Shown piece by piece: positions 35,646 through 62,007 of a stretch of DNA of 64,000 bases. Source of the stretch: Escherichia coli (GTDB lineage: Bacteria; Pseudomonadota; Gammaproteobacteria; Enterobacterales; Enterobacteriaceae); assembly GCF_003018115.1 (NCBI RefSeq), contig NZ_CP027457.1. One strand, given 5' to 3'. The notes below the pieces were generated by a model. That model had not been told where the DNA came from, ran no database searches, and was given only the letters and a program-made list of their open reading frames with translations. Both the position numbers and the translations under genes were made by a program. Position 1 is the first letter of the stretch. The number at the start of each line of letters is the position of its first letter.

Positions 35646-37007
35646 GTGGAAAAAGAAAATATCACCCTCGATCCGCGTTCTTCATTTACTCCATCTTCGT
35701 CGGCAGATATTCCCGTGCCACCAGATGGATTAGTTCAACGCAGTACCCGAATTAAACGCATTCAAACCACCGCCATGTTGTTATTATTTTTTGCGGCGGT
35801 AATCAATTATCTCGACCGCAGTTCGCTGTCGGTAGCAAATTTAACGATTCGTGAAGAATTGGGATTAAGTGCCACCGAAATCGGCGCTTTGCTCTCCGTG
35901 TTTTCACTCGCTTACGGCATTGCGCAACTTCCTTGCGGCCCACTATTAGATCGTAAAGGCCCACGCCTGATGCTGGGACTGGGGATGTTCTTCTGGTCAC
36001 TGTTCCAGGCCATGTCTGGCATGGTGCACAGCTTTACGCAGTTCGTGTTGGTGCGTATCGGTATGGGGATTGGTGAAGCGCCGATGAACCCATGCGGTGT
36101 AAAAGTCATTAACGACTGGTTCAACATCAAAGAGCGCGGACGCCCGATGGGCTTCTTCAACGCAGCTTCTACCATTGGCGTTGCCGTAAGCCCACCGATT
36201 CTGGCGGCGATGATGCTGGTGATGGGCTGGCGCGGGATGTTTATTACCATTGGTGTACTGGGGATTTTTCTCGCCATCGGCTGGTATATGCTCTATCGCA
36301 ACCGCGAGCACGTAGAACTGACTGCCGTTGAACAAGCTTATCTCAATGCAGGTAGCGTCAATGCCCGCCGAGATCCGCTCAGTTTTGCCGAATGGCGCAG
36401 CCTGTTCCGTAACCGCACAATGTGGGGAATGATGCTCGGATTCAGTGGCATCAACTACACTGCGTGGCTGTACCTAGCCTGGCTTCCTGGTTACCTGCAA
36501 ACAGCCTATAACCTGGATTTAAAAAGCACAGGGTTGATGGCGGCTATCCCTTTCCTGTTTGGGGCTGCCGGGATGCTGGTCAACGGCTACGTTACTGACT
36601 GGCTGGTCAAAGGGGGAATGGCTCCGATTAAAAGCCGTAAGATCTGCATTATTGCCGGGATGTTCTGTTCTGCCGCCTTTACGCTGATAGTACCACAAGC
36701 GACAACATCCATGATGGCGGTTCTGCTGATTGGCATGGCACTGTTCTGTATTCACTTTGCCGGAACATCCTGCTGGGGCTTGATCCACGTCGCAGTTGCT
36801 TCTCGCATGACTGCGTCGGTGGGCAGTATCCAGAACTTTGCCAGCTTCATCTGCGCCTCTTTCGCGCCGATCATTACTGGTTTTATTGTTGATACAACCC
36901 ACTCATTCCGTCTGGCACTAATCATTTGCGGTTGCGTCACCGCAGCGGGAGCACTGGCGTACATCTTCCTGGTTCGTCAGCCGATCAACGACCCGCGTAA
37001 AGATTAA
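35646..37007 (+). CDS. lgoT: MFS L-galactonate:H+ symporter LgoT (453 aa, GTG start)
   Basis: ORF track 453 aa; 12-TM MFS pattern. Confidence 0.92.
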   Translation: MEKENITLDPRSSFTPSSSADIPVPPDGLVQRSTRIKRIQTTAMLLLFFAAVINYLDRSSLSVANLTIREELGLSATEIGALLSVFSLAYGIAQLPCGPLLDRKGPRLMLGLGMFFWSLFQAMSGMVHSFTQFVLVRIGMGIGEAPMNPCGVKVINDWFNIKERGRPMGFFNAASTIGVAVSPPILAAMMLVMGWRGMFITIGVLGIFLAIGWYMLYRNREHVELTAVEQAYLNAGSVNARRDPLSFAEWRSLFRNRTMWGMMLGFSGINYTAWLYLAWLPGYLQTAYNLDLKSTGLMAAIPFLFGAAGMLVNGYVTDWLVKGGMAPIKSRKICIIAGMFCSAAFTLIVPQATTSMMAVLLIGMALFCIHFAGTSCWGLIHVAVASRMTASVGSIQNFASFICASFAPIITGFIVDTTHSFRLALIICGCVTAAGALAYIFLVRQPINDPRKD

Positions 37008-37016
37008 ACTCCCTAT

Positions 37017-37048
37017 GCCCGATAACATTTTGCTTATCGGGCATTTTT
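37017..37048 (+). terminator. rho-independent terminator between convergent lgoT and tsr
   Basis: GCCCGATAA / TTATCGGGC stem (37017-37025 / 37034-37042) followed by TTTTT. Confidence 0.7.
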
Positions 37049-37055
37049 ATGGCGA

Positions 37056-38720
37056 TTAAAACGTTTCCCAGTTCTCCCCGCTATCTGCCACTGCCATTTT
37101 ACGCGGCGTAGCTGGCGTCACGGTTTTTACCACAGCCGATGTTTCACGCTGCTGTTGCTGCTGTTGCTGAATCCGGAACACTGCCACAGCTTCGGTCAGG
37201 CGACTGGCCTGCTCTTCCAGCGCGGCGGCGGCGGCGGCAGATTCTTCCACCAGCGCGGCGTTCTGTTGAGTTACCCGGTCCATCTCAGCAACCGCTAAGC
37301 CAACCTGATCGATACCACGGCTCTGCTCATCAGAAGCAGAAGCTATTTCGCCCATAATGTCCGTCACGCGGGTCACAGCACTGACAATCTCCGCCATTGT
37401 TTCCCCGGCGCTTTCGACCAGCGTAGAGCCAACATCCACTTTCCCCACCGAGTCTTCAATCAGGCTTTTAATTTCACGAGCCGCCTGGGCGCTACGCTGG
37501 GCCAGATTACGCACTTCTCCCGCAACCACCGCAAAACCACGTCCTTGCTCACCCGCACGCGCTGCTTCAACCGCCGCGTTCAAAGCCAGAATATTGGTCT
37601 GGAAGGCAATGCCGTCAATTACGCTGATAATATCGGCGATTTTCTGCGAACTGGTGGAGATATCACGCATAGTCTGCACCACGTTATCTACCACTTTGCC
37701 GCCGCGTTGCGCCGTTTCAGAAGCACTTAACGCCAGGTGGCTGGCCTGGCGCGCATTCTCGGCGTTCTGTTTCACCGTTGCGGTCAGTTGCTCCATGCTG
37801 GCTGCCGTCTCTTCCAGCGAAGCGGCCTGTTGCTCGGTGCGCGAAGAGAGATCGTTATTGCCGGTGGCGATTTCGCTGGCACCGCTATAAATGGCATTGG
37901 CCCCGTTGCGCACATCACCGACGGTACGCATCAGCTCTCCCTGCATATGGCGCAAACTCTCTGCCAGTTGCCCCATCTCATTAGAGCCATCCACCTCAAT
38001 CGGTTTCACCAGATCGCCGCCTGCAATATGACGAATGCTGTCAATCAGGCGATTCATTGGCGCTACCAGCGAGGCTTTAATACCGAACCAGACGGCGAAG
38101 ATGACCGCCAGTACGACGATCATCACGCCCACCAGAATCCACATCGCCTGGCTGTAGGAGGCATTGTTATCGCTGACGGCGATATCATAGAGCCGATCGT
38201 TTTGCTCCATGTAAGCCACATACTGCTTCTCGAAACCGTCTTGATATCCCTGAGTCGGCTGATCAAAGAACTCGTTGATTTTGCCTGCACCTAACAGTTG
38301 GATCAGCTCCGCCAGCGCATTGTGATAAATATCGTAATTACGTTTGATCTCTGCCGCTGCGGCGGTGCTCTGACGCGGGTCACGCGGCAACGCTTCGTAA
38401 TCCGCCCAGTTTTTTTCCGCCTGTTTCAGCGAAATACTGGCACTCTGCATCAGCTCAGCAACGGTTGAACCGCTACCAATATTATTCTGATCCATCATGT
38501 AGCGGATACCCGCGCGGTTGAGGGTGTTACGCGTCTGCAACAACGCGACCCAGCTGCCATTCAGCGTGGATTGCTGCTGGCGAATGGTTTGTAAAACAGT
38601 GAAATTTTCTTTGTCATTCTTTAAGGCATTAAAGAACAGACCGCCTGATGTCAGTTGTAAAAGGCCAAAAACGGCCAAAACCAGCAGTAAGCTGGTCACG
38701 ATCTTGATACGTTTTAACAT
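37056..38720 (-). CDS. tsr: serine methyl-accepting chemotaxis protein Tsr (554 aa)
   Basis: ORF track; periplasmic domain, HAMP, methylation sites, C-terminal NWETF pentapeptide. Confidence 0.95.
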
Positions 38721-38838
38721 GGTTTCTCTTTCCTGTGGACCGATGCAAGATTTTCGGCCTGGAAAGCAAAAACTTTATGAAAAGGTGTAACCCGCCATCC
38801 ATGGAAAAACCAGGCGCTGGTTATCAGATACTAAAAAG

Positions 38839-39285
38839 TTATTCATTATCGCCCGGGATGTCTTCTTGTCGGGAATTGCCCAGAGCAATAAATTCCTCTA
38901 ACAGATGGGTTAACTGTTGCATTTTCTCGGCAGTAAACTGAGCTTCAATCTGCCGATAGGCTTCTTCAATCTGTGTCTGGGCGCGGTTATACAGCGCCTG
39001 CCCCTCTTTGGTTAGCGAGATATAGAGCTTCCGCTGATCATTGATCGGCTTTAATCGCAACACTAAACCGTCGCGTTCCATCCGCGTGAGGATCCCGGTC
39101 AGGCTTGGGCGCAAAATGCAGGCGCGATACGCCAGATCGTGAAAATCCATTGATGGGCTTTCCGCCAGAATACGCACGATGCGCCACTGTTGCTCAGTCA
39201 AATTATGCCGTTTAACGATTGGGCGAAAATAACTCATCGCCGCTTCTCGCGCCTGGAGCAACGCAATGGTTAGTGAGTCGTGCAT
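38839..39285 (-). CDS. hpaR: MarR-family repressor HpaR of the hpa meta-cleavage operon (148 aa)
   Basis: ORF track; start at internal ATG giving MHDSLTIALLQAREAAMSYFRP; MarR winged HTH. Confidence 0.88.
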   Translation of the reverse strand: MHDSLTIALLQAREAAMSYFRPIVKRHNLTEQQWRIVRILAESPSMDFHDLAYRACILRPSLTGILTRMERDGLVLRLKPINDQRKLYISLTKEGQALYNRAQTQIEEAYRQIEAQFTAEKMQQLTHLLEEFIALGNSRQEDIPGDNE

Positions 39286-39507
39286 TATCTTTCCCCTGAA
39301 AAATTCAAAATCATTAATATAGAAACAGTTAATCGTCACGTTACCGGGACTGCGCTGTCCCTGCAATTCCTGATTTTATCAAAATTGATGATATTTTATT
39401 AACTTACTGATATTTAATATTTTATTATCTTTAAATGTAAATAGTTTGTTAATTAGATCACATTTATATCACTTACTTTTGCCAAACTACGCAATCGGGA
39501 ATAAAAG

Positions 39508-39531
39508 TAATCATTAACATATTAATGATTA
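39508..39531. promoter_or_regulatory. perfect inverted repeat in the hpaG promoter region, candidate HpaR operator
   Basis: TAATCATTAA-CATA-TTAATGATTA, 26 bp upstream of the hpaG ATG; related half-site AAAATCATTAATAT at 39307-39320 near the hpaR start. Confidence 0.5.
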
Positions 39532-39556
39532 AGATGATCGAATCCGAGGAGTGGTA

Positions 39557-40846
39557 ATGAAAGGCACTATCTTCGCCGTAGCATTGAACCATCGCAGCCA
39601 ACTTGATGCCTGGCAGGAAGCGTTCCAGCAATCTCCCTACAAAGCCCCGCCTAAAACTGCGGTCTGGTTTATTAAACCGCGCAATACGGTGATTGGTTGC
39701 GGTGAACCGATTCCCTTTCCACAGGGTGAAAAGGTACTGAGCGGTGCGACAGTTGCGCTGATTGTGGGAAAAACGGCGACGAAAGTACGTGAAGAAGATG
39801 CGGCAGAGTACATCGCCGGATATGCGCTGGCTAACGACGTCAGCCTGCCGGAAGAGAGCTTTTACCGCCCGGCAATCAAAGCAAAATGTCGTGATGGATT
39901 CTGCCCCATTGGCGAAACCGTGGCTCTCAGCAATGTCGATAATCTGACTATCTATACCGAGATCAACGGGCGTCCTGCCGATCACTGGAATACCGCCGAT
40001 TTACAACGTAACGCCGCACAGCTGCTGAGCGCCCTGAGCGAATTTGCCACGCTAAATCCAGGCGATGCCATTCTGCTCGGCACGCCACAGGCGCGCGTGG
40101 AAATACAGCCAGGCGATCGCGTGCGTATTCTCGCAGAAGGTTTCCCGCCGCTGGAAAATCCGGTAGTGGACGAACGTGAAGTGACCACGCGCAAGAGCTT
40201 CCCAACGCTGCCACACCCGCACGGTACGCTGTTTGCCCTCGGCCTGAACTACGCCGACCACGCCAGCGAACTGGAATTTAAGCCACCGGAAGAGCCGCTG
40301 GTGTTCCTGAAAGCGCCGAATACCCTCACTGGCCATAACCAGACCTCCGTGCGCCCGAACAATATTGAATACATGCACTACGAAGCGGAGCTGGTGGTAG
40401 TTATTGGCAAGCAGGCGCGTAACGTCAGCGAAGCCGATGCCATGGATTATGTCGCGGGCTACACCGTGTGTAACGACTACGCCATTCGCGACTATCTGGA
40501 AAACTACTACCGCCCTAACCTGCGGGTCAAAAGCCGCGACGGACTGACGCCGATGCTTTCAATCATCGTGCCGAAAGAGGCGATCCCGGACCCGCATAAT
40601 CTGACCCTTCGCACCTTCGTCAACGGCGAGTTACGCCAGCAAGGCACCACCGCCGATCTGATCTTCAGCGTGCCCTTCCTGATCGCCTACTTAAGCGAAT
40701 TTATGACCCTGAATCCGGGCGACATGATCGCCACCGGCACACCAAAAGGCTTATCTGACGTGGTGCCTGGCGATGAAGTAGTGGTAGAAGTAGAAGGCGT
40801 GGGCCGCCTGGTGAACCGAATTGTGAGTGAGGAAACAGCGAAATGA
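39557..40846 (+). CDS. hpaG: bifunctional 5-oxopent-3-ene-1,2,5-tricarboxylate decarboxylase / 2-hydroxyhepta-2,4-diene-1,7-dioate isomerase HpaG (429 aa)
   Basis: ORF track; ATG 39557 preceded by GAGGA; two FAH-fold repeats. Confidence 0.92.
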   Translation: MKGTIFAVALNHRSQLDAWQEAFQQSPYKAPPKTAVWFIKPRNTVIGCGEPIPFPQGEKVLSGATVALIVGKTATKVREEDAAEYIAGYALANDVSLPEESFYRPAIKAKCRDGFCPIGETVALSNVDNLTIYTEINGRPADHWNTADLQRNAAQLLSALSEFATLNPGDAILLGTPQARVEIQPGDRVRILAEGFPPLENPVVDEREVTTRKSFPTLPHPHGTLFALGLNYADHASELEFKPPEEPLVFLKAPNTLTGHNQTSVRPNNIEYMHYEAELVVVIGKQARNVSEADAMDYVAGYTVCNDYAIRDYLENYYRPNLRVKSRDGLTPMLSIIVPKEAIPDPHNLTLRTFVNGELRQQGTTADLIFSVPFLIAYLSEFMTLNPGDMIATGTPKGLSDVVPGDEVVVEVEGVGRLVNRIVSEETAK

Positions 40847-42309
40847 AAAAAGTAAATCATTGGATCAACGGCAAAAATGTTGCAGGTAACGACTACTTCC
40901 AGACCACCAATCCGGCAACGGGTGAAGTGCTGGCGGATGTGGCCTCTGGCGGTGAAGCGGAGATCAATCAGGCGGTAGCGGCAGCGAAAGAGGCGTTCCC
41001 GAAATGGGCCAATCTGCCGATGAAAGAGCGTGCGCGCCTGATGCGCCGTCTGGGCGATCTGATCGACCAGAACGTGCCTGAGATCGCCGCGATGGAAACC
41101 GCGGACACGGGCCTGCCGATCCATCAGACCAAAAATGTGTTGATCCCACGCGCTTCTCACAACTTTGAATTTTTCGCGGAAGTCTGCCAGCAGATGAACG
41201 GCAAGACCTATCCGGTTGACGACAAGATGCTCAACTACACGCTGGTGCAACCGGTAGGCGTTTGTGCGCTGGTGTCACCGTGGAACGTGCCGTTTATGAC
41301 CGCCACCTGGAAGGTCGCGCCGTGTCTTGCGCTGGGCAATACCGCGGTGCTGAAGATGTCGGAACTCTCCCCGCTGACCGCTGACCGCCTGGGTGAGCTG
41401 GCGCTGGAAGCCGGTATTCCGGCGGGCGTGCTGAACGTGGTACAGGGCTACGGCGCAACCGCAGGGGATGCGCTGGTTCGTCATCATGACGTACGTGCCG
41501 TGTCGTTCACCGGCGGTACGGCCACCGGGCGCAACATCATGAAAAACGCCGGGCTGAAAAAATACTCCATGGAACTGGGCGGTAAATCGCCGGTGCTGAT
41601 TTTTGAAGATGCCGATATTGAACGCGCGCTGGACGCTGCCCTGTTCACCATCTTCTCAATCAACGGCGAACGCTGCACCGCCGGTTCGCGCATTTTTATT
41701 CAACAGAGCATCTATCCAGAATTCGTTAAACGCTTTGCCGAACGCGCCAACCGTCTGCGCGTGGGCGATCCGACCGATCCGAATACCCAGGTTGGGGCGC
41801 TTATCAGCCAGCAGCACTGGGAAAAAGTCTCCGGCTATATCCGTCTCGGCATTGAAGAAGGCGCAACCCTGCTGGCGGGCGGCCCGGATAAACCGTCCGA
41901 CCTGCCTGCGCACCTGAAAGGCGGCAACTTCCTGCGCCCAACCGTGCTGGCAGACGTTGATAACCGTATGCGAGTCGCCCAGGAAGAGATTTTCGGGCCG
42001 GTCGCCTGCCTGCTGCCGTTTAAAGACGAAGCCGAAGGCTTACGTCTGGCAAACGACGTGGAGTACGGCCTCGCGTCGTACATCTGGACGCAGGATGTCA
42101 GCAAAGTGTTACGCCTGGCGCGTGGCATTGAAGCTGGCATGGTGTTCGTCAACACCCAGAACGTGCGTGACCTGCGCCAGCCATTTGGCGGCGTAAAAGC
42201 CTCCGGCACCGGGCGTGAAGGCGGTGAGTACAGCTTCGAAGTGTTCGCGGAAATGAAGAACGTCTGCATTTCCATGGGCGACCATCCAATTCCGAAATGG
42301 GGAGTCTGA
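40843..42309 (+). CDS. hpaE: 5-carboxymethyl-2-hydroxymuconate semialdehyde dehydrogenase HpaE (488 aa)
   Basis: ORF track; aldehyde dehydrogenase active-site region ERCTAGSR; ATGA overlap with hpaG. Confidence 0.93.
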   Translation: MKKVNHWINGKNVAGNDYFQTTNPATGEVLADVASGGEAEINQAVAAAKEAFPKWANLPMKERARLMRRLGDLIDQNVPEIAAMETADTGLPIHQTKNVLIPRASHNFEFFAEVCQQMNGKTYPVDDKMLNYTLVQPVGVCALVSPWNVPFMTATWKVAPCLALGNTAVLKMSELSPLTADRLGELALEAGIPAGVLNVVQGYGATAGDALVRHHDVRAVSFTGGTATGRNIMKNAGLKKYSMELGGKSPVLIFEDADIERALDAALFTIFSINGERCTAGSRIFIQQSIYPEFVKRFAERANRLRVGDPTDPNTQVGALISQQHWEKVSGYIRLGIEEGATLLAGGPDKPSDLPAHLKGGNFLRPTVLADVDNRMRVAQEEIFGPVACLLPFKDEAEGLRLANDVEYGLASYIWTQDVSKVLRLARGIEAGMVFVNTQNVRDLRQPFGGVKASGTGREGGEYSFEVFAEMKNVCISMGDHPIPKWGV

Positions 42310-42310
42310 T

Positions 42311-43162
42311 ATGGGTAAGTTAGCGTTAGCCGCCAAGATCACGCACGTACCGTCGATGTATCTCTCTGAACTGCCAGGGAAAAACCACGGTTGCCGCCAG
42401 GGCGCGATCGACGGGCATAAAGAGATCAGCAAGCGTTGCCGGGAAATGGGCGTCGATACCATTATCGTTTTCGATACCCACTGGCTGGTCAACAGTGCTT
42501 ATCACATCAACTGTGCAGACCATTTTGAAGGCGTCTACACCAGCAACGAGCTGCCGCATTTTATCCGCGATATGACCTACAACTACGAGGGCAACCCGGA
42601 GTTGGGGCAGCTTATTGCCGATGAAGCCTTAAAGCTCGGCGTGCGGGCAAAAGCGCACAACATTCCCAGCCTGAAACTGGAATACGGCACGCTGGTGCCA
42701 ATGCGCTACATGAATGAAGACAAGCACTTCAAAGTGGTTTCCATTTCAGCTTTCTGCACTGTTCACGATTTTGCCGACAGCCGCAAGCTGGGCGAGGCTA
42801 TTCTGAAAGCGATCGAACAGTACGACGGCACCGTGGCGGTCCTTGCCAGCGGTTCGTTATCGCACCGCTTTATTGACGATCAGCGAGCGGAAGAAGGGAT
42901 GAACAGCTACACCCGCGAGTTCGACCGCCAGATGGACGAGCGCGTGGTGAAGCTGTGGCGCGAAGGCCAGTTCAACGAGTTCTGCAATATGCTGCCGGAG
43001 TATGCCGACTACTGCTACGGCGAAGGCAATATGCACGACACGGTGATGCTGCTGGGGATGCTCGGCTGGGATAAATACGACGGCAAGGTGGAGTTTATCA
43101 CCGAGCTATTCCCAAGCTCTGGCACCGGTCAGGTTAACGCTGTTTTCCCGCTTCCCGCGTAA
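42311..43162 (+). CDS. hpaD: 3,4-dihydroxyphenylacetate 2,3-dioxygenase HpaD (283 aa)
   Basis: ORF track 283 aa; position within the hpa operon. Confidence 0.92.
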   Translation: MGKLALAAKITHVPSMYLSELPGKNHGCRQGAIDGHKEISKRCREMGVDTIIVFDTHWLVNSAYHINCADHFEGVYTSNELPHFIRDMTYNYEGNPELGQLIADEALKLGVRAKAHNIPSLKLEYGTLVPMRYMNEDKHFKVVSISAFCTVHDFADSRKLGEAILKAIEQYDGTVAVLASGSLSHRFIDDQRAEEGMNSYTREFDRQMDERVVKLWREGQFNEFCNMLPEYADYCYGEGNMHDTVMLLGMLGWDKYDGKVEFITELFPSSGTGQVNAVFPLPA

Positions 43163-43171
43163 GGACGTTTT

Positions 43172-43552
43172 ATGCCGCACTTTATCGTGGAATGTACTGA
43201 AAATATTCGTGAAGAAGCCCGCTTACCTGAGCTGTTTGCCAGTGTTAACACTGCACTGGCGGCAACGGGGATTTTTCCGCTTGGGGGAATACGTAGCCGG
43301 GCGCACTGGATCGATACCTGGCAAATGGCTGATGGCAAGCACGATTACGCCTTTGTGCATATGACGCTAAAAATCGGCAGCGGACGCAGTCTGGAAAGCC
43401 GTCAGGAAGTAGGCGAAATGCTGTTTGATCTGATTAAAACGCACTTCGCCTCACTGATGGAGAGCCGTTACCTGGCGCTTTCATTTGAGATTGCAGAGCT
43501 GCACCCGACGTTGAATTTCAAACAGAACAACGTACACGCGTTGTTTAAATAA
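43172..43552 (+). CDS. hpaF: 5-carboxymethyl-2-hydroxymuconate isomerase HpaF (126 aa)
   Basis: ORF track 126 aa, starts MPHFIVECT. Confidence 0.9.
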
Positions 43553-43619
43553 ATTTGCACCAGCTTCCAGGCCGGATGATAAGGCGCAGCCGCATCCGGC
43601 AATGCCACAGGATATCGCT

Positions 43620-44423
43620 ATGTTCGATAAACACACCCACACCCTGATCGCCCAGCGTCTGGATCAGGCAGAAAAACAGCGCGAACAGATCCGCGCGATC
43701 TCGCTGGATTACCCGGAGATCACCATCGAAGACGCTTACGCGGTGCAGCGCGAATGGGTTCGCCTGAAAATAGCCGAAGGCCGTACGCTGAAAGGCCACA
43801 AAATCGGACTGACCTCGAAAGCGATGCAGGCCAGCTCACAGATCAGCGAACCAGATTACGGTGCATTGCTGGACGACATGTTCTTCCACGATGGCAGCGA
43901 TATCCCGACCGATCGCTTTATCGTACCGCGCATTGAAGTGGAGCTGGCTTTTGTGCTGGCAAAACCGCTGCGTGGGCCAAACTGCACGCTGTTCGACGTT
44001 TACAACGCCACGGACTATGTGATCCCGGCGCTGGAGCTGATCGACGCTCGCTGCCACAACATCGATCCGGAAACTCAGCGCCCGCGCAAAGTGTTCGACA
44101 CCATTTCTGATAACGCCGCCAACGCCGGAGTGATCCTCGGAGGTCGTCCGATCAAACCAGACGAACTGGATCTGCGTTGGATCTCCGCCCTCATGTATCG
44201 CAATGGCGTGATTGAAGAAACCGGCGTCGCCGCTGGCGTGCTGAATCACCCGGCAAACGGCGTGGCCTGGCTGGCGAACAAACTCGCACCGTATGACGTA
44301 CAACTGGAAGCCGGGCAAATCATTCTCGGTGGTTCGTTTACCCGCCCGGTTCCGGCGCGTAAGGGCGACACCTTCCACGTCGATTACGGCAACATGGGCT
44401 CCATTAGCTGCCGCTTTGTTTAA
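43620..44423 (+). CDS. hpaH: 2-oxo-hept-4-ene-1,7-dioate hydratase HpaH (267 aa)
   Basis: ORF track; start at internal ATG giving [20 protein letters not shown]. Confidence 0.9.
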
Positions 44424-44433
44424 GGAGAGAACG

Positions 44434-45222
44434 ATGGAAAACAGTTTTAAAGCGGCGCTGAAAGCAGGCCGTCCGCAGATTGGATTATGGCTGGGGCTGA
44501 GCAGCAGCTACAGCGCGGAGTTACTGGCCGGAGCAGGATTCGACTGGTTGTTGATCGACGGTGAGCACGCACCGAACAACGTACAAACCGTGCTCACCCA
44601 ACTACAGGCGATTGCGCCCTACCCCAGCCAGCCGGTGGTACGTCCGTCGTGGAACGATCCGGTGCAAATCAAACAACTGCTGGATGTCGGCACACAAACC
44701 TTACTGGTGCCGATGGTTCAAAACGCTGACGAAGCCCGTGAAGCGGTACGCGCCACCCGTTATCCCCCCGCCGGTATTCGCGGTGTGGGCAGTGCGCTGG
44801 CTCGCGCCTCGCGCTGGAATCGCATTCCTGATTACCTGCAAAAAGCCAACGATCAAATGTGCGTGCTGGTGCAGATCGAAACGCGTGAGGCAATGAAGAA
44901 CTTACCGCAGATTCTGGACGTGGAAGGGGTCGACGGCGTGTTTATCGGCCCGGCGGATCTGAGCGCCGATATGGGTTATGCCGGTAATCCGCAGCACCCG
45001 GAAGTACAGGTCGCCATTGAGCAGGCGATCGTGCAGATCCGCGAAGCGGGTAAGGCGCCGGGGATCCTGATCGCCAATGAGCAACTGGCAAAACGCTATC
45101 TGGAACTGGGCGCGCTGTTTGTCGCCGTCGGCGTTGACACCACCCTGCTCGCCCGCGCCGCCGAAGCGCTGGCAGCACGGTTTGGCGCGCAGGCTACAGC
45201 GATTAAGCCCGGCGTGTATTAA
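44434..45222 (+). CDS. hpaI: 4-hydroxy-2-oxo-heptane-1,7-dioate aldolase HpaI (262 aa)
   Basis: ORF track; start at internal ATG giving [22 protein letters not shown], preceded by AAGGAGAG. Confidence 0.9.
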
Positions 45223-45350
45223 TGCCGGATGCGCTGCGCTTATCCGGCCTACACTCGCACCAAATCGTAGGCCTGATAAGGCGTTACGCCGCATCAGGCA
45301 AAAAGCCGTACCAAATCGCGGACCGGATAAGGCGTTTACGCCGCATCCGC
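45223..45350. repeat. REP cluster between hpaI and hpaX
   Basis: three GCCGGATGCG...CTTATCCGGCCTAC-type palindromic units. Confidence 0.8.
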
Positions 45351-45396
45351 CATAAACCTTGTCGTACCCTACAAAAATCCCATTAGAGGAAGAAAA

Positions 45397-46773
45397 ATGA
45401 GCGACACCTCACCTGCCATACCGGAGAGTATCGATCCGGCGAATCAGCATAAAGCGCTGACTGCCGGACAACAGGCGGTTATTAAGAAGTTGTTTCGCCG
45501 CCTGATCGTCTTTCTGTTCGTGCTGTTTATCTTCTCGTTCCTTGATCGCATCAACATCGGCTTTGCCGGACTCACGATGGGACGCGACCTCGGTCTGAGC
45601 GCCACCATGTTTGGCCTCGCCACCACCCTGTTCTACGCCGCTTATGTCATCTTCGGCATTCCCAGCAACATTATGCTGAGTATTGTCGGTGCGCGACGCT
45701 GGATCGCCACCATCATGGTACTTTGGGGCATCGCCTCTACTGCCACCATGTTTGCCACTGGCCCCACCAGCTTGTACGTACTGCGTATACTGGTTGGCAT
45801 TACCGAAGCCGGCTTTCTGCCCGGTATTCTGCTCTATTTAACCTTCTGGTTTCCGGCCTACTTCCGCGCCCGTGCCAACGCCTTGTTTATGGTGGCAATG
45901 CCGGTAACGACAGCGTTGGGATCGATCGTTTCCGGCTACATTTTGTCGCTGGATGGCGTAATGGCATTAAAAGGCTGGCAGTGGCTGTTTTTGCTGGAAG
46001 GCTTCCCGTCGGTATTACTCGGCGTCATGGTGTGGTTCTGGCTTGATGACTCACCGGACAAAGCTAAGTGGCTGACGAAAGAAGACAAAAAATGCCTGCA
46101 AGAGATGATGGATAACGATCGTCTGACGCTGGTTCAGCCAGAGGGAGCCATCAGCCACCATGCCATGCAACAACGCAGCATGTGGCGGGAGATCTTCACT
46201 CCGGTGGTGATGATGTATACCCTGGCGTATTTCTGCCTGACCAACACACTTAGTGCGATCAGCATCTGGACACCGCAGATCCTGCAAAGCTTTAATCAGG
46301 GCAGCAGTAATATCACCATCGGCCTGCTGGCCGCCGTACCGCAGATTTGTACCATTCTCGGGATGATCTACTGGAGCCGTCACTCAGATCGCCGCCAGGA
46401 ACGAAGGCATCACACCGCCCTTCCTTATTTGTTCGCTGCCGCTGGTTGGTTACTGGCTTCGGCAACTGATCACAACATGATCCAGATGCTGGGGATCATT
46501 ATGGCTTCGACCGGATCATTCAGCGCAATGGCGATTTTCTGGACAACACCGGATCAGTCCATCAGCCTGCGGGCACGAGCGATCGGTATTGCGGTGATCA
46601 ACGCCACTGGCAACATTGGTTCAGCATTAAGTCCGTTTATGATCGGCTGGTTGAAAGATCTGACCGGCAGCTTTAACAGTGGATTGTGGTTTGTTGCCGC
46701 GCTGCTGGTGATTGGTGCAGGGATTATCTGGGCAATTCCAATGCAGTCCTCCCGTCCGCGAGCGACCCCGTAA
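45397..46773 (+). CDS. hpaX: MFS 4-hydroxyphenylacetate transporter HpaX (458 aa)
   Basis: ORF track 458 aa; 12-TM MFS pattern. Confidence 0.92.
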   Translation: MSDTSPAIPESIDPANQHKALTAGQQAVIKKLFRRLIVFLFVLFIFSFLDRINIGFAGLTMGRDLGLSATMFGLATTLFYAAYVIFGIPSNIMLSIVGARRWIATIMVLWGIASTATMFATGPTSLYVLRILVGITEAGFLPGILLYLTFWFPAYFRARANALFMVAMPVTTALGSIVSGYILSLDGVMALKGWQWLFLLEGFPSVLLGVMVWFWLDDSPDKAKWLTKEDKKCLQEMMDNDRLTLVQPEGAISHHAMQQRSMWREIFTPVVMMYTLAYFCLTNTLSAISIWTPQILQSFNQGSSNITIGLLAAVPQICTILGMIYWSRHSDRRQERRHHTALPYLFAAAGWLLASATDHNMIQMLGIIMASTGSFSAMAIFWTTPDQSISLRARAIGIAVINATGNIGSALSPFMIGWLKDLTGSFNSGLWFVAALLVIGAGIIWAIPMQSSRPRATP

Positions 46774-46782
46774 GGAACGACG

Positions 46783-47673
46783 ATGTGTGACCGTCAGATT
46801 GCCAATATTGATATCAGCAAAGAGTACGATGAAAGCCTGGGCACGGACGATGTGCATTATCAGTCGTTCGCCCGCATGGCGGCATTTTTTGGCCGCCATA
46901 TGCTGCCACATCGCCACGAACAGTACTTTCAGATGCATTTCCTCAATAGCGGACAGATTGAGCTACAGCTTGACGATCATCGCTACTCGGTGGAAGCGCC
47001 CCTGTTTGTCCTGACGCCGCCGTCAGTACCTCATGCGTTTATTACGGAGTCTGACGCCGACGGTCATGTGTTGACGGTACGGGAAGATCTGATCTGGCCC
47101 CTGCTGGAAGTTCTTTATCCAGGCACTCGGGAAACCTTCGGCCTGCCGGGGATTTGCCTGTCACTGGCAGATAAACCCGACGAACTGGCGGCGCTGGAAC
47201 ACTATTGGCAACTGATAGAGCGGGAATCGGTGGAACAACTGCCTGGACGGGAACACACCCTGACGTTACTGGCACAGGCAGTGTTCACCCTACTGCTGCG
47301 TAACGCAAAACTCGACGATCATGCCGCCAGCGGAATGCGCGGAGAATTAAAACTGTTCCAGCGTTTTCATATGCTGATTGAAAGCCATTTTCATCAGCAC
47401 TGGACAGTACCAGATTACGCTAACGAACTGCATATCACCGAATCACGCCTCACGGACATCTGCCGCCGCTTTGCCAACCGTCCGCCAAAACGGTTGATTT
47501 TCGACAGGCAGCTGCGAGAAGCCAAACGGCTGCTGCTGTTTTCTGATAACGCCGTGAACAATATTGCCTGGCAACTCGGTTTTAAGGATCCGGCTTATTT
47601 TGCGCGCTTTTTTAATCGCTTAGTCGGTTGCTCGCCCAGTGCTTATCGCGCCAAAAAAGTACCTGTGACGTGA
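46783..47673 (+). CDS. hpaA: AraC/XylS-family activator HpaA of hpaBC (296 aa)
   Basis: ORF track; cupin-like N-terminal domain, C-terminal AraC HTH. Confidence 0.9.
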   Translation: MCDRQIANIDISKEYDESLGTDDVHYQSFARMAAFFGRHMLPHRHEQYFQMHFLNSGQIELQLDDHRYSVEAPLFVLTPPSVPHAFITESDADGHVLTVREDLIWPLLEVLYPGTRETFGLPGICLSLADKPDELAALEHYWQLIERESVEQLPGREHTLTLLAQAVFTLLLRNAKLDDHAASGMRGELKLFQRFHMLIESHFHQHWTVPDYANELHITESRLTDICRRFANRPPKRLIFDRQLREAKRLLLFSDNAVNNIAWQLGFKDPAYFARFFNRLVGCSPSAYRAKKVPVT

Positions 47674-47923
47674 AAATCCCTTAGCCTTAACGGGAAACCA
47701 GGCATCACCTGCTATTCCCCTTTCTCCGCCTGGAGCAAGGGGATTTAGTAACGTTAAAAATCGCTAAAAGCGACCTCGATCACAAAACCGTACCCGACCT
47801 GAAAAGTACCAGCCATTGTCCCAAAAGTCTCTTCCCGTAATCGCCCCTGCAAGCTTCAATTGAATAACAAAAACAACACACAAAATTAACAATCGTATTC
47901 CGATTAATACTGTAGAGGTCGAC

Positions 47924-49486
47924 ATGAAACCAGAAGATTTCCGCGCCAGTACCCAACGTCCGTTCACCGGGGAAGAGTATCTGAAAAGCCTGCAGGATGG
48001 TCGCGAGATCTATATCTACGGCGAGAGAGTGAAAGACGTCACCACTCATCCGGCATTTCGTAATGCGGCAGCGTCTGTTGCCCAACTGTACGACGCGCTA
48101 CACAAACCGGAGATGCAGGACTCTCTGTGTTGGAACACCGACACCGGCAGCGGCGGCTATACCCATAAATTCTTCCGCGTGGCGAAAAGTGCCGACGACC
48201 TGCGCCAGCAACGCGATGCCATCGCTGAGTGGTCACGCCTGAGCTATGGCTGGATGGGCCGTACCCCAGACTACAAAGCTGCTTTCGGTTGCGCACTGGG
48301 CGCGAATCCGGGCTTTTACGGTCAGTTCGAGCAGAACGCCCGTAACTGGTATACCCGTATTCAGGAAACTGGCCTCTACTTTAACCACGCGATTGTTAAC
48401 CCACCGATCGATCGTCATTTGCCGACCGATAAAGTGAAAGACGTTTACATCAAGCTGGAAAAAGAGACTGACGCCGGGATTATCGTCAGCGGTGCGAAAG
48501 TGGTTGCCACCAACTCGGCGCTGACTCACTACAACATGATTGGTTTCGGCTCGGCACAAGTGATGGGCGAAAACCCGGACTTCGCACTGATGTTCGTTGC
48601 GCCAATGGATGCCGATGGCGTGAAATTAATCTCCCGCGCCTCTTATGAGATGGTCGCGGGTGCTACCGGCTCGCCGTACGACTACCCGCTCTCCAGCCGC
48701 TTCGATGAGAACGATGCGATCCTGGTGATGGATAACGTACTGATCCCTTGGGAAAACGTGCTGATCTACCGCGATTTCGATCGCTGCCGTCGCTGGACGA
48801 TGGAAGGCGGTTTTGCCCGTATGTATCCGCTGCAAGCCTGTGTGCGCCTGGCAGTGAAACTCGACTTCATCACGGCACTGCTGAAAAAATCACTCGAATG
48901 TACCGGCACCCTGGAGTTCCGTGGTGTGCAGGCCGATCTCGGTGAAGTGGTGGCGTGGCGCAACACCTTCTGGGCATTGAGTGACTCGATGTGTTCAGAA
49001 GCGACGCCGTGGGTCAACGGGGCTTATTTACCGGATCATGCTGCACTGCAAACCTATCGCGTACTGGCACCAATGGCCTACGCGAAGATCAAAAACATTA
49101 TCGAACGCAACGTTACCAGTGGCCTGATCTATCTCCCTTCCAGTGCCCGTGACCTGAACAATCCGCAGATCGACCAGTATCTGGCGAAGTATGTGCGCGG
49201 TTCGAACGGTATGGATCACGTCCAGCGCATCAAGATCCTCAAACTGATGTGGGATGCCATTGGCAGCGAATTTGGTGGTCGTCACGAGCTGTATGAAATC
49301 AACTACTCCGGTAGCCAGGATGAGATTCGCCTGCAATGTCTGCGCCAGGCACAAAGCTCCGGCAATATGGACAAGATGATGGCGATGGTTGATCGCTGCC
49401 TGTCGGAATACGACCAGAACGGCTGGACTGTGCCGCACCTGCACAACAACGACGATATCAACATGCTGGATAAGCTGCTGAAATAA
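47924..49486 (+). CDS. hpaB: 4-hydroxyphenylacetate 3-monooxygenase, oxygenase component HpaB (520 aa)
   Basis: ORF track 520 aa. Confidence 0.94.
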   Translation: MKPEDFRASTQRPFTGEEYLKSLQDGREIYIYGERVKDVTTHPAFRNAAASVAQLYDALHKPEMQDSLCWNTDTGSGGYTHKFFRVAKSADDLRQQRDAIAEWSRLSYGWMGRTPDYKAAFGCALGANPGFYGQFEQNARNWYTRIQETGLYFNHAIVNPPIDRHLPTDKVKDVYIKLEKETDAGIIVSGAKVVATNSALTHYNMIGFGSAQVMGENPDFALMFVAPMDADGVKLISRASYEMVAGATGSPYDYPLSSRFDENDAILVMDNVLIPWENVLIYRDFDRCRRWTMEGGFARMYPLQACVRLAVKLDFITALLKKSLECTGTLEFRGVQADLGEVVAWRNTFWALSDSMCSEATPWVNGAYLPDHAALQTYRVLAPMAYAKIKNIIERNVTSGLIYLPSSARDLNNPQIDQYLAKYVRGSNGMDHVQRIKILKLMWDAIGSEFGGRHELYEINYSGSQDEIRLQCLRQAQSSGNMDKMMAMVDRCLSEYDQNGWTVPHLHNNDDINMLDKLLK

Positions 49487-49503
49487 CGCAGCAGGAGGTT
49501 AAG

Positions 49504-50016
49504 ATGCAATTAGATGAACAACGCCTGCGCTTTCGTGACGCGATGGCCAGCCTGTCGGCAGCGGTAAATATTATCACCACCGAGGGCGACGCCGGACAAT
49601 GCGGGATTACGGCAACGGCCGTCTGCTCGGTCACGGATACCCCTCCGTCGCTGATGGTGTGCATTAACGCCAACAGTGCGATGAACCCGGTTTTTCAGGG
49701 CAACGGCAAGTTGTGCGTCAACGTCCTCAACCATGAGCAGGAACTGATGGCGCGCCACTTCGCGGGCATGACGGGCATGGCGATGGAAGAGCGTTTTAGC
49801 CTCTCGTGCTGGCAAAAAGGTCCGCTGGCGCAGCCGGTGCTAAAAGGTTCGCTGGCCAGTCTTGAAGGTGAGATCCGCGATGTGCAGGCGATTGGCACAC
49901 ATCTGGTGTATCTGGTGGAGATTAAAAACATCATCCTCAGTGCAGAAGGTCACGGACTTATTTACTTTAAACGCCGTTTCCATCCGGTGATGCTGGAAAT
50001 GGAAGCTGCGATTTAA
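49504..50016 (+). CDS. hpaC: 4-hydroxyphenylacetate 3-monooxygenase, flavin reductase component HpaC (170 aa)
   Basis: ORF track 170 aa; 18 bp after hpaB. Confidence 0.93.
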   Translation: MQLDEQRLRFRDAMASLSAAVNIITTEGDAGQCGITATAVCSVTDTPPSLMVCINANSAMNPVFQGNGKLCVNVLNHEQELMARHFAGMTGMAMEERFSLSCWQKGPLAQPVLKGSLASLEGEIRDVQAIGTHLVYLVEIKNIILSAEGHGLIYFKRRFHPVMLEMEAAI

Positions 50017-50023
50017 GCTCCAG

Positions 50024-50055
50024 CCCCTTCACGCATTCGTCGAAGGGGCATTTTT
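50024..50055 (+). terminator. rho-independent terminator after hpaC
   Basis: CCCCTTC / GAAGGGG stem (50024-50030 / 50042-50048) followed by TTTTT. Confidence 0.7.
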
Positions 50056-50101
50056 ATTGTGATCTCAATCACATATCCACCCGACGAATAATTCTTGCCC
50101 A

Positions 50102-50129
50102 ACCGCTCACCGCCATTCCTGACCGCTTA
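50102..50129 (+). promoter_or_regulatory. direct repeat ACCGCTCA-N12-ACCGCTTA upstream of btsT, candidate BtsR (YehT) response-regulator site
   Basis: two 8-bp direct repeats at 50102-50109 and 50122-50129, about 300 bp upstream of the btsT ATG. Confidence 0.5.
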
Positions 50130-50408
50130 CATCCCTAAAATAACCACTCAGTTATTTACCTTACTTTACGCGCGCGTATCTCTGGCAACATCACTGCAGG
50201 ATAGCGGTCAATTTACCTCCTCAAACGCAACGCAAACCTAGAACGGCTTCGGCCTATGATTAACAAATTACTCTATGGATTTTGGTTTGCAGGAAGGCAG
50301 CAAGTGAGTGAATCCCCGGGAGCTTACAACAGTAAGTGACAGGGGTGAACGAACGCAGCTGCCGCACCTGTAAGCCAAAAGACGACGAGTAAAATGCCAG
50401 GTTTTACT

Positions 50409-52559
50409 ATGGATACGAAAAAACTATTCAAGCACATACCCTGGGTGATTCTCGGAATCATCGGTGCATTCTGCCTCGCGGTAGTTGCATTACGTCGGGG
50501 GGAGCACGTCAGCGCCCTGTGGATCGTGGTCGCCTCTGTGTCGGTGTATCTGGTGGCGTATCGCTACTACAGTCTGTACATCGCCCAGAAGGTGATGAAA
50601 CTCGACCCCACGCGCGCGACGCCTGCGGTTATTAACAACGACGGTCTGAACTACGTTCCGACCAACCGTTACGTGTTGTTTGGTCACCACTTCGCCGCTA
50701 TCGCCGGTGCTGGTCCGCTGGTTGGTCCGGTTCTCGCCGCGCAGATGGGCTACCTGCCTGGCACGCTGTGGCTGCTGGCGGGGGTAGTGCTGGCCGGTGC
50801 GGTACAGGACTTTATGGTGCTGTTTATCTCCTCTCGCCGTAACGGCGCATCTCTCGGTGAGATGATCAAAGAAGAGATGGGACCAGTACCGGGGACTATC
50901 GCGCTGTTTGGCTGTTTCTTAATCATGATCATCATCCTCGCCGTTCTGGCGCTGATTGTGGTTAAAGCCCTGGCCGAAAGTCCGTGGGGTGTCTTCACCG
51001 TTTGCTCAACCGTACCAATTGCGCTGTTTATGGGTATCTATATGCGCTTTATTCGTCCGGGGCGTGTGGGTGAAGTCTCTGTCATTGGTATCGTGCTGCT
51101 GGTTGCCTCTATCTACTTCGGTGGCGTGATTGCTCACGATCCGTACTGGGGTCCGGCACTGACCTTTAAAGACACCACCATTACCTTCGCGCTGATTGGC
51201 TATGCGTTTGTTTCCGCACTGCTGCCGGTGTGGCTGATCCTCGCACCACGCGACTATCTGGCAACCTTCCTGAAAATCGGCGTTATCGTCGGCCTGGCGC
51301 TGGGTATCGTGGTGCTGAACCCGGAACTGAAAATGCCTGCGATGACCCAGTACATTGACGGTACTGGCCCGCTGTGGAAAGGCGCTCTGTTCCCGTTCCT
51401 GTTCATCACCATCGCCTGTGGTGCGGTATCTGGCTTCCACGCACTGATCTCTTCCGGTACGACGCCGAAACTGCTGGCTAATGAAACCGACGCGCGTTTC
51501 ATCGGTTATGGCGCAATGCTGATGGAGTCCTTCGTGGCGATTATGGCGCTGGTTGCTGCGTCCATCATCGAACCAGGTCTTTACTTCGCGATGAATACCC
51601 CGCCTGCTGGCCTTGGCATCACCATGCCTAACCTGCATGAAATGGGTGGCGAGAACGCGCCGATCATCATGGCGCAGTTGAAAGACGTTACCGCACACGC
51701 GGCGGCGACCGTCAGCTCCTGGGGCTTCGTGATTTCGCCAGAGCAGATCCTGCAAACCGCGAAAGACATTGGTGAGCCTTCTGTCCTGAACCGTGCAGGT
51801 GGTGCGCCGACGCTGGCGGTAGGTATCGCTCACGTGTTCCACAAAGTGCTGCCGATGGCTGACATGGGCTTCTGGTATCACTTCGGTATTCTGTTCGAAG
51901 CACTGTTCATCCTGACCGCGCTGGATGCGGGTACCCGTTCTGGCCGCTTTATGTTGCAAGACCTGCTGGGTAACTTCATCCCGTTCCTGAAAAAAACCGA
52001 CTCTCTGGTTGCCGGTATCATCGGTACTGCGGGCTGTGTGGGTCTGTGGGGCTACCTGCTGTATCAGGGCGTGGTCGATCCGCTGGGCGGCGTTAAGAGC
52101 CTGTGGCCGTTGTTCGGTATCTCCAACCAGATGCTGGCAGCCGTGGCGCTGGTACTGGGTACCGTTGTGCTGATTAAGATGAAGCGCACCCAATACATCT
52201 GGGTAACTGTTGTTCCGGCTGTATGGCTGCTTATCTGCACCACCTGGGCACTGGGTCTGAAACTGTTCAGCACCAACCCGCAGATGGAAGGCTTCTTCTA
52301 CATGGCAAGCCAGTACAAAGAGAAGATTGCTAACGGTACTGACCTGACGGCGCAGCAGATTGCCAACATGAACCACATCGTTGTGAACAACTACACCAAC
52401 GCAGGTCTGAGTATTCTGTTCCTGATTGTGGTGTACAGCATCATCTTCTACGGTTTCAAAACCTGGCTGAAGGTGCGTAACAGCGACAAACGTACTGACA
52501 AAGAAACACCGTACGTTCCAATCCCGGAAGGCGGCGTGAAGATCTCTTCGCACCACTAA
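50409..52559 (+). CDS. btsT: CstA-family pyruvate/H+ symporter BtsT (YjiY, 716 aa)
   Basis: ORF track; start at internal ATG giving MDTKKLFKHIPWVILGIIGAF; multi-TM CstA-like. Confidence 0.93.
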   Translation: MDTKKLFKHIPWVILGIIGAFCLAVVALRRGEHVSALWIVVASVSVYLVAYRYYSLYIAQKVMKLDPTRATPAVINNDGLNYVPTNRYVLFGHHFAAIAGAGPLVGPVLAAQMGYLPGTLWLLAGVVLAGAVQDFMVLFISSRRNGASLGEMIKEEMGPVPGTIALFGCFLIMIIILAVLALIVVKALAESPWGVFTVCSTVPIALFMGIYMRFIRPGRVGEVSVIGIVLLVASIYFGGVIAHDPYWGPALTFKDTTITFALIGYAFVSALLPVWLILAPRDYLATFLKIGVIVGLALGIVVLNPELKMPAMTQYIDGTGPLWKGALFPFLFITIACGAVSGFHALISSGTTPKLLANETDARFIGYGAMLMESFVAIMALVAASIIEPGLYFAMNTPPAGLGITMPNLHEMGGENAPIIMAQLKDVTAHAAATVSSWGFVISPEQILQTAKDIGEPSVLNRAGGAPTLAVGIAHVFHKVLPMADMGFWYHFGILFEALFILTALDAGTRSGRFMLQDLLGNFIPFLKKTDSLVAGIIGTAGCVGLWGYLLYQGVVDPLGGVKSLWPLFGISNQMLAAVALVLGTVVLIKMKRTQYIWVTVVPAVWLLICTTWALGLKLFSTNPQMEGFFYMASQYKEKIANGTDLTAQQIANMNHIVVNNYTNAGLSILFLIVVYSIIFYGFKTWLKVRNSDKRTDKETPYVPIPEGGVKISSHH

Positions 52560-52567
52560 CCGTGTTT

Positions 52568-52595
52568 AGCCCCGCTTCGGCGGGGCTTTGTTCTT
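52568..52595 (+). terminator. rho-independent terminator after btsT
   Basis: AGCCCCGC-TTCG-GCGGGGCT hairpin followed by TTTGTTCTT. Confidence 0.7.
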
Positions 52596-52608
52596 ATCAG
52601 AGTGAACT

Positions 52609-53824: not shown

Positions 53825-54739
53825 TCACTCAAAATAGTCCATATCCAGTTTCGGCACCTTCAACAAACGTGAAGAAACCCCTACTTCGTTTTCGATCATT
53901 AAGTGCACCAGGCGTTCCCCATCAACCAACACCATACCCTCGACGGATTGAGCAAAGTCACGCGCCTGAGACGTAAATCCAGAAGTGGTAATAAACACCC
54001 CACGTTTCGCCTTTTGCCCAGCCAGTGCGCCGTAAAATGCCTGTAATTCTGGCCTGCCTACAGTGTTCTGCCAACGTTTTGCCTGAACATAAACTTTCTC
54101 CAGGCCAAGTTTATCAAGCGATATCACACCATCGATGCCACCATCTCCAGTACCGCCAACACGCTGCAAATCATCACGGTGGCCGCCATACCCCAGGCGA
54201 TGCAAAACATCCAGAACAATGACTTCAAAGCGCGAAGGAGAAACCTGCAATAAGTTTTCCAGAACCTCATCAGCCACCGCATCACTAAGCTCTTTTAGCG
54301 CCTGATCTAACCGATCGTCCGGGCTGCTCTTTGCAAGTTCTTCATGATCGGGAGAGTCGGCTTTCGGATCTAAATCGACGGCATCCGGCCGTGACTTAAG
54401 TTTGACATTCACAAAATCGAAGGCCAGATGGTTCGTCTCCTGCTCCGTCATTGGCTGGGGATGAGACGCAACCCAGTCAAAACCCGCAGGAGTCAGGCAC
54501 CATTTGCCACGCGACAAACTTTGCGACAACCCGGCACGTTTTAAACGGTCATGCGCCCAGCCTGCACGATTTTTATAAACAAGTTGTCCGCTGGTAATGA
54601 CTTTCGCTCGCTGGCTGTCATCCAGTCCTAATGCATCCGCGGCAGCCTCATGAACATCACGCGCGGCTGCACCTTCCGGTTTTGTCGCCAGATAACGCAG
54701 AACAGGTTCAATAAATTTGTCATAGGTAGGAACCGTCAT
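53825..54739 (-). CDS. mrr: Mrr, Type IV methylated-adenine/cytosine-dependent restriction endonuclease (304 aa)
   Basis: ORF track 304 aa, MTVPTYDKFIEPVLRYLATKPEGAAARDV. Confidence 0.93.
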   Translation of the reverse strand: MTVPTYDKFIEPVLRYLATKPEGAAARDVHEAAADALGLDDSQRAKVITSGQLVYKNRAGWAHDRLKRAGLSQSLSRGKWCLTPAGFDWVASHPQPMTEQETNHLAFDFVNVKLKSRPDAVDLDPKADSPDHEELAKSSPDDRLDQALKELSDAVADEVLENLLQVSPSRFEVIVLDVLHRLGYGGHRDDLQRVGGTGDGGIDGVISLDKLGLEKVYVQAKRWQNTVGRPELQAFYGALAGQKAKRGVFITTSGFTSQARDFAQSVEGMVLVDGERLVHLMIENEVGVSSRLLKVPKLDMDYFE

Positions 54740-58439: not shown

Positions 58440-58515
58440 CACGGTATCATTCCCGGCAATTTCTTCTTCTGCGGCCCAATAAATTTGGGCCGCTGCTTAA
58501 TTTACGGAACACCCA

Positions 58516-61582: not shown

Positions 61583-61589
61583 ATTTAGC

Positions 61590-61999: not shown

Positions 62000-62007
62000 T
62001 ACATTGA

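Follow-up and report, generated by a model that had tools for sequence, protein, structure and literature searches.

We examined a stretch of 64,000 nucleotides from Escherichia coli (RefSeq assembly GCF_003018115.1, contig NZ_CP027457.1; hereafter the window), in which positions 38839-50016, between tsr and btsT, carry the hpa genes for 4-hydroxyphenylacetate (4-HPA) catabolism. We are confident that these genes form the canonical hpa cluster of E. coli, for meta-cleavage of homoprotocatechuate, and that it is complete and predicted to be functional; most likely it is an ancestral segment which was deleted or replaced in K-12 and not a mobile island. The cluster itself is an already-known textbook system and is ordinary in E. 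coli. What is mildly new is the exact position of the junctions, the presence of several alleles in the tsr-btsT spacer, the synteny across genera that speaks for loss in K-12, and a count of ERIC repeats in the btsT leader that matches the count of hpa clusters.

A mechanical listing of open reading frames (ORFs) gave one minus-strand ORF ending at 38839 and then ten plus-strand ORFs running to 50016. All eleven frames are open and lie between tsr and btsT in the order hpaR (minus strand), hpaGEDFHI, hpaX, hpaA and hpaBC (plus strand), which is the gene order, with the same outer coordinates, that an earlier note on this DNA (the original prediction) had given. We found that each of the eleven products matches its own specific NCBIfam equivalog model above the curated cut-off and across the full length of the model. 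Three genomes, among them E. coli F8111-1SC3 (NZ_CP024269.1), match the interval 37000-52600 at 100% identity, and the RefSeq annotation of F8111-1SC3 places no pseudogene flag on any gene of hpaR-GEDFHI-X-A-BC. The ORFs, the NCBIfam matches and the RefSeq annotation all support the claim that eleven intact hpa genes, including the regulators, the MFS transporter and the two-component monooxygenase, are present. Gene starts were mapped onto the window from the annotation of the near-identical F8111-1SC3 DNA. This annotation trims four of the mechanical ORFs, hpaR, hpaG, hpaH and hpaI, to the coordinates given in Table 1; the ORFs are over-extended at their 5' ends, with 148 amino acids for HpaR against a TTG ORF of 175 and 262 amino acids for HpaI against an ORF of 309.

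Several of the products could be compared with E. coli proteins of known structure. HpaB aligns with PDB 6QYH over its full length, and the printed alignment shows two substitutions (518/520, counted by hand). End-to-end matches were also found between HpaG and PDB 1GTT (residues 1-429), between HpaI and PDB 2V5J and 4B5X (residues 1-262), and between HpaF and PDB 1OTG. No E. coli HpaC structure was found for comparison.

The same eleven genes, in the same order and orientation and with the same regulators, MFS permease and two-component monooxygenase, make up the hpa cluster of E. coli W (ATCC 11105) and the hpc cluster of E. coli C, which were reportedly described by Prieto, Diaz and Garcia in 1996 and by Roper et al. 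in 1993 (cited in PMC7180172 and PMC7201708). The window differs from these clusters only at the level of alleles, by about 2% of nucleotides from most E. coli copies and by the two HpaB substitutions relative to 6QYH. The cluster of E. coli B has 98.2% nucleotide identity to the window over the whole 11.3 kb, with small indels in the spacers; it is matched over 11,226 bp, whereas the window has 11,277 bp. Residue 379 of HpaB is arginine in the window, as in BL21(DE3), but cysteine in REL606. Across E. coli the hpa matches span 11,225 to 11,320 bp, and these length differences probably map to spacers such as that between hpaI and hpaX. Inverted repeats in this spacer (Table 1) were assigned as REP-type units on the basis of what we take to be the REP consensus.

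We compared the window with K-12 MG1655, in which tsr and btsT are divergent neighbours separated by a 377-bp spacer with zero hpa genes. This agrees with the claim that the cluster is absent from K-12. In the window tsr (37056-38720, minus strand) and btsT (also yjiY; 50409-52559, plus strand) border the cluster, also as predicted (tsr stop at 37056, btsT on the other side). K-12 is collinear with the window through 38781, and both BLAST and direct reading place the left junction at 38781/38782; the tsr side is 98.4% identical right up to this point. On the other side K-12 can be aligned again from a CRP-like box, TGTGATCTCAATCACA (50060-50075), which places the right junction at about 50058. 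Beyond it the alignment is poor through 50102 and rises to 93% identity over 50103-50266 and 97.6% in btsT. The original prediction had called for this alignment and had expected the junctions at 38.72-38.84 kb and 50.02-50.10 kb; both fall within these intervals. The variable segment in the window extends from 38782 to about 50058, from the hpaR terminator through the hpaC terminator. Between the same junctions K-12 has a filler of about 88 bp, AT-rich (29.5% G+C) and without any equivalent in the window.

The junctions lie close to promoter elements of the two flanking genes. The left junction is 4 bp upstream of a tsr promoter that was found by pattern search (Table 1) and resembles the sigma-28 consensus known from FliA promoters. 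Directly outside the right junction is the CRP-like box of the btsT promoter, which is shared but diverged and aligns with both K-12 and O157. We found no direct or inverted border repeats of at least 8 bp at either junction and no mobility genes (integrase, transposase) between lgoT and mrr. There is no tRNA gene at the borders, the closest being at 23966-24284, 14 kb off. The location between tsr and btsT was the same in every hpa-positive E. coli locus inspected.

To place the cluster beyond E. coli we searched with HpaH across one genome per GTDB species, took the best 80 loci with 10-kb flanks and then ran tblastn with the window proteins. The order tsr-hpaR...hpaC-btsT was found in 8 loci among the best 80, and in seven of the eight yjiA was present as well. 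These loci come from Pseudocitrobacter, Enterobacter cloacae, Enterobacter asburiae, Enterobacter sichuanensis, Lelliottia and one Citrobacter species, and in Enterobacter cloacae tsr directly abuts hpaR, as it does in the window. The adjacency of hpaC and btsT was more widespread (19 loci among the best 80), also taking in Klebsiella and Raoultella. In Enterobacter the nucleotide identity to the window is 85-88% for hpaE, hpaD, hpaH and hpaB and about 86% for btsT. These four hpa genes have diverged to the same extent as the flanking btsT, which fits vertical descent of the whole block.

Clusters from other genera differ from the window in detail. Those of Klebsiella, Enterobacter and Pseudocitrobacter have the same gene set and the hpaC-btsT-yjiA adjacency, several of them with tsr upstream, but show 12-25% nucleotide divergence and, in some species, an HpaG match over only about half of the gene and a divergent HpaX of about 70% amino acid identity. 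In Pseudocitrobacter, additional genes occupying 3.4 kb separate tsr from hpaR. Salmonella enterica has the same enzymes at 84-97% amino acid identity, but its cluster lies elsewhere, with hpaBC inverted and upstream of hpaR and with neither tsr nor btsT within 10 kb (locus L017). In Serratia, Photorhabdus, Xenorhabdus, Providencia and Hafnia the cluster is likewise present without tsr or btsT as neighbours.

From these comparisons we infer tsr-hpa-btsT-yjiX-yjiA to be the ancestral arrangement for the part of the Enterobacteriaceae that includes Escherichia, Enterobacter and Klebsiella. The synteny across genera and the lack of a mobility signature favour an ancestral hpa segment that E. coli of the K-12 and O157 types lost by deletion or replacement. 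The K-12 state is thus most likely, as judged from sequence comparison, a loss or replacement and not an empty insertion site. Loss of hpa in K-12 has been suggested before, with reference to Diaz et al. 2001 (PMC7201708). The allele of K-12 and half of E. coli would accordingly be derived, with about 88 bp of AT-rich DNA standing in for the entire cluster, and O157:H7 would have a third, replacement allele. The original prediction had called the cluster an island while leaving insertion or deletion open; the synteny and the missing mobility signature favour loss or replacement of an ancestral segment.

We determined how the alleles are distributed among 5426 complete E. coli genomes, using coverage thresholds. 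The hpa cluster was found in 2073 of these (38%), 2019 of them at a coverage of at least 80%. The K-12-type spacer was found in 2755, including the B2 strains LF82 and ST95, and is about 97% identical in B2. A third tsr-btsT allele was present in 363 genomes, mainly O157:H7, and the junctions are common to all three alleles. This allele consists of 777 bp with 35% G+C (positions 13179-13955 of locus L003, from O157:H7 strain 9234) and is equivalent to 38779-50057 of the window. We found no match to the 88-bp K-12 filler or to the 777-bp O157 segment in the 80 foreign loci, and tblastn with the O157 ORF gave none either. Both hpa-positive and hpa-negative strains occur within phylogroup A (B and K-12, respectively). 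A copy at least 99% identical to that of the window is present in only four genomes, the remaining copies being 97.3-98.3% identical.

Strains B, C and W grow on hydroxyphenylacetate whereas K-12 does not (PMC7201708, PMC7180172), and hpaB has been found in phylogroups A, B1 and C but is absent from B2 and G (PMC12444784). The description of the cluster in the original prediction as characteristic of E. coli B, C and W is historically correct; it is too narrow, since the cluster occurs in well over a third of the complete genomes and in phylogroups A, B1 and C.

The third allele contains an ORF of 180 amino acids with a D...E-I-K motif. It has a sub-threshold Pfam match to a TnsA-like N-terminal / PD-(D/E)xK domain (E = 0.068) and a weak PADLOC match; no NCBIfam match was found for this ORF.

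Individual strains depart from the three alleles. In strain 47-1826 (locus L004, 18552-19440) a deletion joins DNA just after hpaF to iraD, and hpaH through hpaC, btsT, yjiX, yjiA and the whole mrr/hsd region are gone. In strain GDSC2227PM (locus L006, 10343-12198) hpaA has an internal stop, the hpaI-hpaX-hpaA segment is divergent, and an extra gene for an MBL-fold metallo-hydrolase separates hpaA from hpaB. Strain BS-04 (locus L005, 6001-6674) has only a remnant of hpaR, at about 81% identity, between tsr and btsT. We considered this remnant as evidence for an old deletion and rejected it because of homopolymer-type errors throughout; either an artefact of assembly or decay of a pseudogene may account for it. 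A plasmid search gave no evidence of a plasmid-borne mobile copy of the cluster: the full-length E. coli matches were records of 0.37-4.8 Mb that resemble mislabelled pieces of chromosome and the Klebsiella matches were 84.5% identical.

The alleles probably have common end points because the outermost upstream promoter elements of the divergent genes tsr and btsT set the limits of the DNA that can be replaced. Selection would keep both promoters intact, so that only replacements sparing them survive. A wider proposal, which we put forward as possible but doubtful, is that the tsr-btsT spacer is a long-lived multi-allelic replacement site at which the ancestral 11.3-kb hpa segment, the 88-bp filler and the 777-bp AT-rich segment are kept by recombination, with the hpa-positive haplotype coupled to the ERIC hairpin in the btsT leader.

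Several points weigh against our reading of the cluster or limit it. The G+C content of the cluster is 54.4% against 51.9% in the rest of the window, a small shift. Among the best 80 HpaH loci the Escherichia lineage has just one further representative, L008, which is labelled E. coli and whose collinear lgoT-tsr-hpa stretch has about 91% nucleotide identity; other Escherichia species are apparently without the cluster. In L008 and Pseudocitrobacter some hpa genes have 94-96% nucleotide identity to the window while flanking genes have 79-89%, and this closer relationship of hpa than of its flanks shows recombination between lineages inside the cluster. Further, the set of complete genomes is clinically biased, and about 235 genomes were assigned to none of the three alleles. 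Growth, expression and regulator binding for this strain are read from its sequence.

The high identity of these hpa genes, set against lower values for tsr, lgoT and btsT, would also be expected if hpa had been lost in an Escherichia ancestor and some E. coli had regained it from a related enterobacterium through homologous recombination in the tsr and btsT flanks, the alleles being shuffled by recombination later. The divergence between hpa-positive and hpa-negative strains, which climbs from btsT (97.6% identity) through 50103-50266 (93%) to 50060-50102 (very diverged) as the right junction is approached, and the presence of both states in phylogroup A (B and K-12), are consistent with such a history. 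However, old linked haplotypes explain the gradient on the btsT side equally well, and the tsr side is E. coli-like (98.4%) up to the junction. No donor more than 96% identical across the whole cluster was found among the best 80 loci. We therefore consider loss followed by regain unlikely.

The Pseudocitrobacter locus (L007 and L009) is a mosaic when compared with 39557-45222 of the window and its surroundings. In Pseudocitrobacter vendiensis hpaE, hpaD and hpaH have 94-96% nucleotide identity, while hpaF at 81%, hpaX at 82%, tsr at 79% and btsT at 87% show the divergence usual between genera. This pattern suggests recent recombination between Escherichia and Pseudocitrobacter within the cluster.

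A horizontally acquired island, inserted between tsr and btsT of an hpa-negative E. coli ancestor so that the K-12 state is the original one, appears highly improbable to us. It would account for the occurrence of hpa in just 38% of the complete genomes, for the K-12-type spacer of the B2 strains, for the slightly raised G+C content, for the position of the cluster next to the hypervariable hsd-mrr region, and for the fact that other Escherichia species are mostly missing among the HpaH matches. In contrast, it does not account for the tsr-hpa-btsT order in at least six other genera with a divergence like that of the flanks. Mobility genes, a tRNA target and flanking repeats were all not found, and the K-12 site is not empty, having about 88 bp without counterpart in hpa-positive strains or other genera. 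In addition, the third allele uses identical boundaries. Descent of an ancestral hpa segment, replaced in K-12, thus remains the reading that we prefer.

The mechanism of the hpa pathway is the one established for E. coli W and C, and its sequence features were checked here. From what is known of E. coli W and C, HpaX would import 4-HPA or 3-hydroxyphenylacetate (3-HPA), and HpaA, of the AraC family, would activate hpaBC in the presence of substrate. HpaC would reduce flavin with NAD(P)H, and with this reduced flavin and O2 HpaB would hydroxylate the substrate, yielding 3,4-dihydroxyphenylacetate. This product would relieve HpaR repression at a palindromic operator before hpaG. HpaD would then open the ring, and HpaE, HpaF, HpaG, HpaH and HpaI would turn the ring-opened product into pyruvate and succinic semialdehyde. 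We found a perfect palindrome just upstream of hpaG (Table 1), which we read as a putative HpaR operator; it fits the TTAA-N4-TTAA core of HpaR sites, said to be similar to the E. coli W sites (PMC7180172). Arg379 of HpaB has been tied to growth on 3-HPA, and REL606, with Cys379, cannot use 3-HPA (PMC7201708). Given the intact genes and HpaB Arg379, the strain is predicted to use both 4-HPA and 3-HPA.

A generic scan for promoters and terminators gave sites not above those in shuffled sequence and missed the hpaR and hpaC terminators, which are visible by eye, and was not used as evidence. An Rfam scan of the whole window found no RNA families within 38.7-50.4 kb.

We give very little weight to the possibility that, although the genes are intact, changes such as those in regulation leave the strain with a silent or impaired pathway: the allele does occur at an identity of at least 99% in only 4 of the 2073 hpa genomes, others being about 2% different, and naturally impaired variants exist (the hpaA internal stop of GDSC2227PM, the truncation of 47-1826 and HpaB Cys379 of REL606), but the frames are all full length with scores far above the equivalog cut-offs, the operator palindrome and the terminators are present, and HpaB has Arg379. 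The strain is hpa-positive, with predicted growth on 3- and 4-hydroxyphenylacetate. Both compounds are gut products of the breakdown of tyrosine and flavonoids, and HpaBC is widely used in biocatalysis.

The btsT 5' leader of the window contains an ERIC repeat (Table 1). The core of this element (50308-50348) has zero mismatches at the specified bases of the ERIC consensus, for which we used a pattern built from what we take to be the ERIC1R and ERIC2 primer sequences. As RNA the element is predicted to form a long hairpin of -62.5 kcal/mol (z = -7.96). An ERIC repeat was found at the btsT-leader site in 2062 of the 5426 genomes and was missing from the remainder, a total close to that of the 2073 hpa-positive genomes, with only the totals compared. 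The repeat is absent from the btsT leader of K-12, the O157 allele and Pseudocitrobacter, and none of the Klebsiella, Enterobacter and Pseudocitrobacter loci checked has it. ERIC thus appears to belong to the hpa-positive haplotype and not to the pathway. It may affect the stability or translation of btsT mRNA. If hpa is indeed coupled to ERIC, strains that carry hpa would also differ in how they express BtsT, the pyruvate transporter.

Table 1. Genes and sequence elements of the hpa region, in window coordinates (.: no strand assigned).
Feature	Position	Strand	Description
hpaR	38839..39285	-	MarR-family repressor of the hpaGEDFHI (meta) operon, 148 aa; TIGR02337, 200 bits vs cut-off 121, model 1-130/130
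hpaG	39557..40846	+	bifunctional OPET decarboxylase / HHDD isomerase, 429 aa; NF011750, 976 bits, model 1-429/429
hpaE	40843..42309	+	5-carboxymethyl-2-hydroxymuconate semialdehyde dehydrogenase, 488 aa; TIGR02299, 740 bits vs cut-off 638
hpaD	42311..43162	+	3,4-dihydroxyphenylacetate (homoprotocatechuate) 2,3-dioxygenase, 283 aa; TIGR02298, 549 bits vs cut-off 316
hpaF	43172..43552	+	5-carboxymethyl-2-hydroxymuconate delta-isomerase, 126 aa; NF011605, model 1-126/126
hpaH	43620..44423	+	2-oxo-hept-4-ene-1,7-dioate hydratase, 267 aa; TIGR02312, model 1-267/267
hpaI	44434..45222	+	4-hydroxy-2-oxoheptanedioate aldolase, 262 aa; TIGR02311, 431 bits vs cut-off 369
hpaX	45397..46773	+	MFS 4-hydroxyphenylacetate permease, 458 aa; TIGR02332, 894 bits vs cut-off 615
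hpaA	46783..47673	+	AraC-family activator of hpaBC, 296 aa; TIGR02297, 387 bits vs cut-off 275
hpaB	47924..49486	+	oxygenase component of 4-HPA 3-monooxygenase, 520 aa, Arg379; TIGR02310, 1110 bits
hpaC	49504..50016	+	NAD(P)H:flavin reductase component, 170 aa; NF012030, 386 bits vs cut-off 315, model 1-170/170
tsr sigma-28-type promoter	38751..38777	-	TAAAGTTT-N11-GCCGAAAA; pattern search
palindrome upstream of hpaG	39508..39531	.	TAATCATTAA-N4-TTAATGATTA; perfect inverted repeat, 100% complementarity
REP-type palindromic units, hpaI-hpaX spacer	45239..45299	.	inverted repeats CTTATCCGGCCTAC/GTAGGCCTGATAAG and GCCTGATAAGGCGT/ACGCCGCATCAGGC; presumed REP consensus
hpaC terminator hairpin	50022..50058	+	GCCCCTTC...GAAGGGGC followed by a T-run; sequence reading
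ERIC/IRU repeat, 127 bp	50267..50393	+	btsT 5' leader, 16 bp before the ATG; insertion relative to K-12

Outside the cluster, Tsr has 554 amino acids in the window against 551 in K-12, with a QQQ insertion at residues 518-520 and four substitutions. Rfam matches to naRNA4 (REP-array / CssrE, RF02564) were found as four tandem copies about 100 bp apart at 15629-16007 and as one more copy at 2537-2615. Downstream of yjiA, positions 53825-64000 hold the 'immigration control' region, with mrr, the type I hsdRMS genes, symE with the SymR antitoxin RNA (61587-61663) and GmrSD/DUF262 genes. Its content is hypervariable; in O157:H7 the hsd genes belong to another family, and an HNH gene takes the place of mrr.

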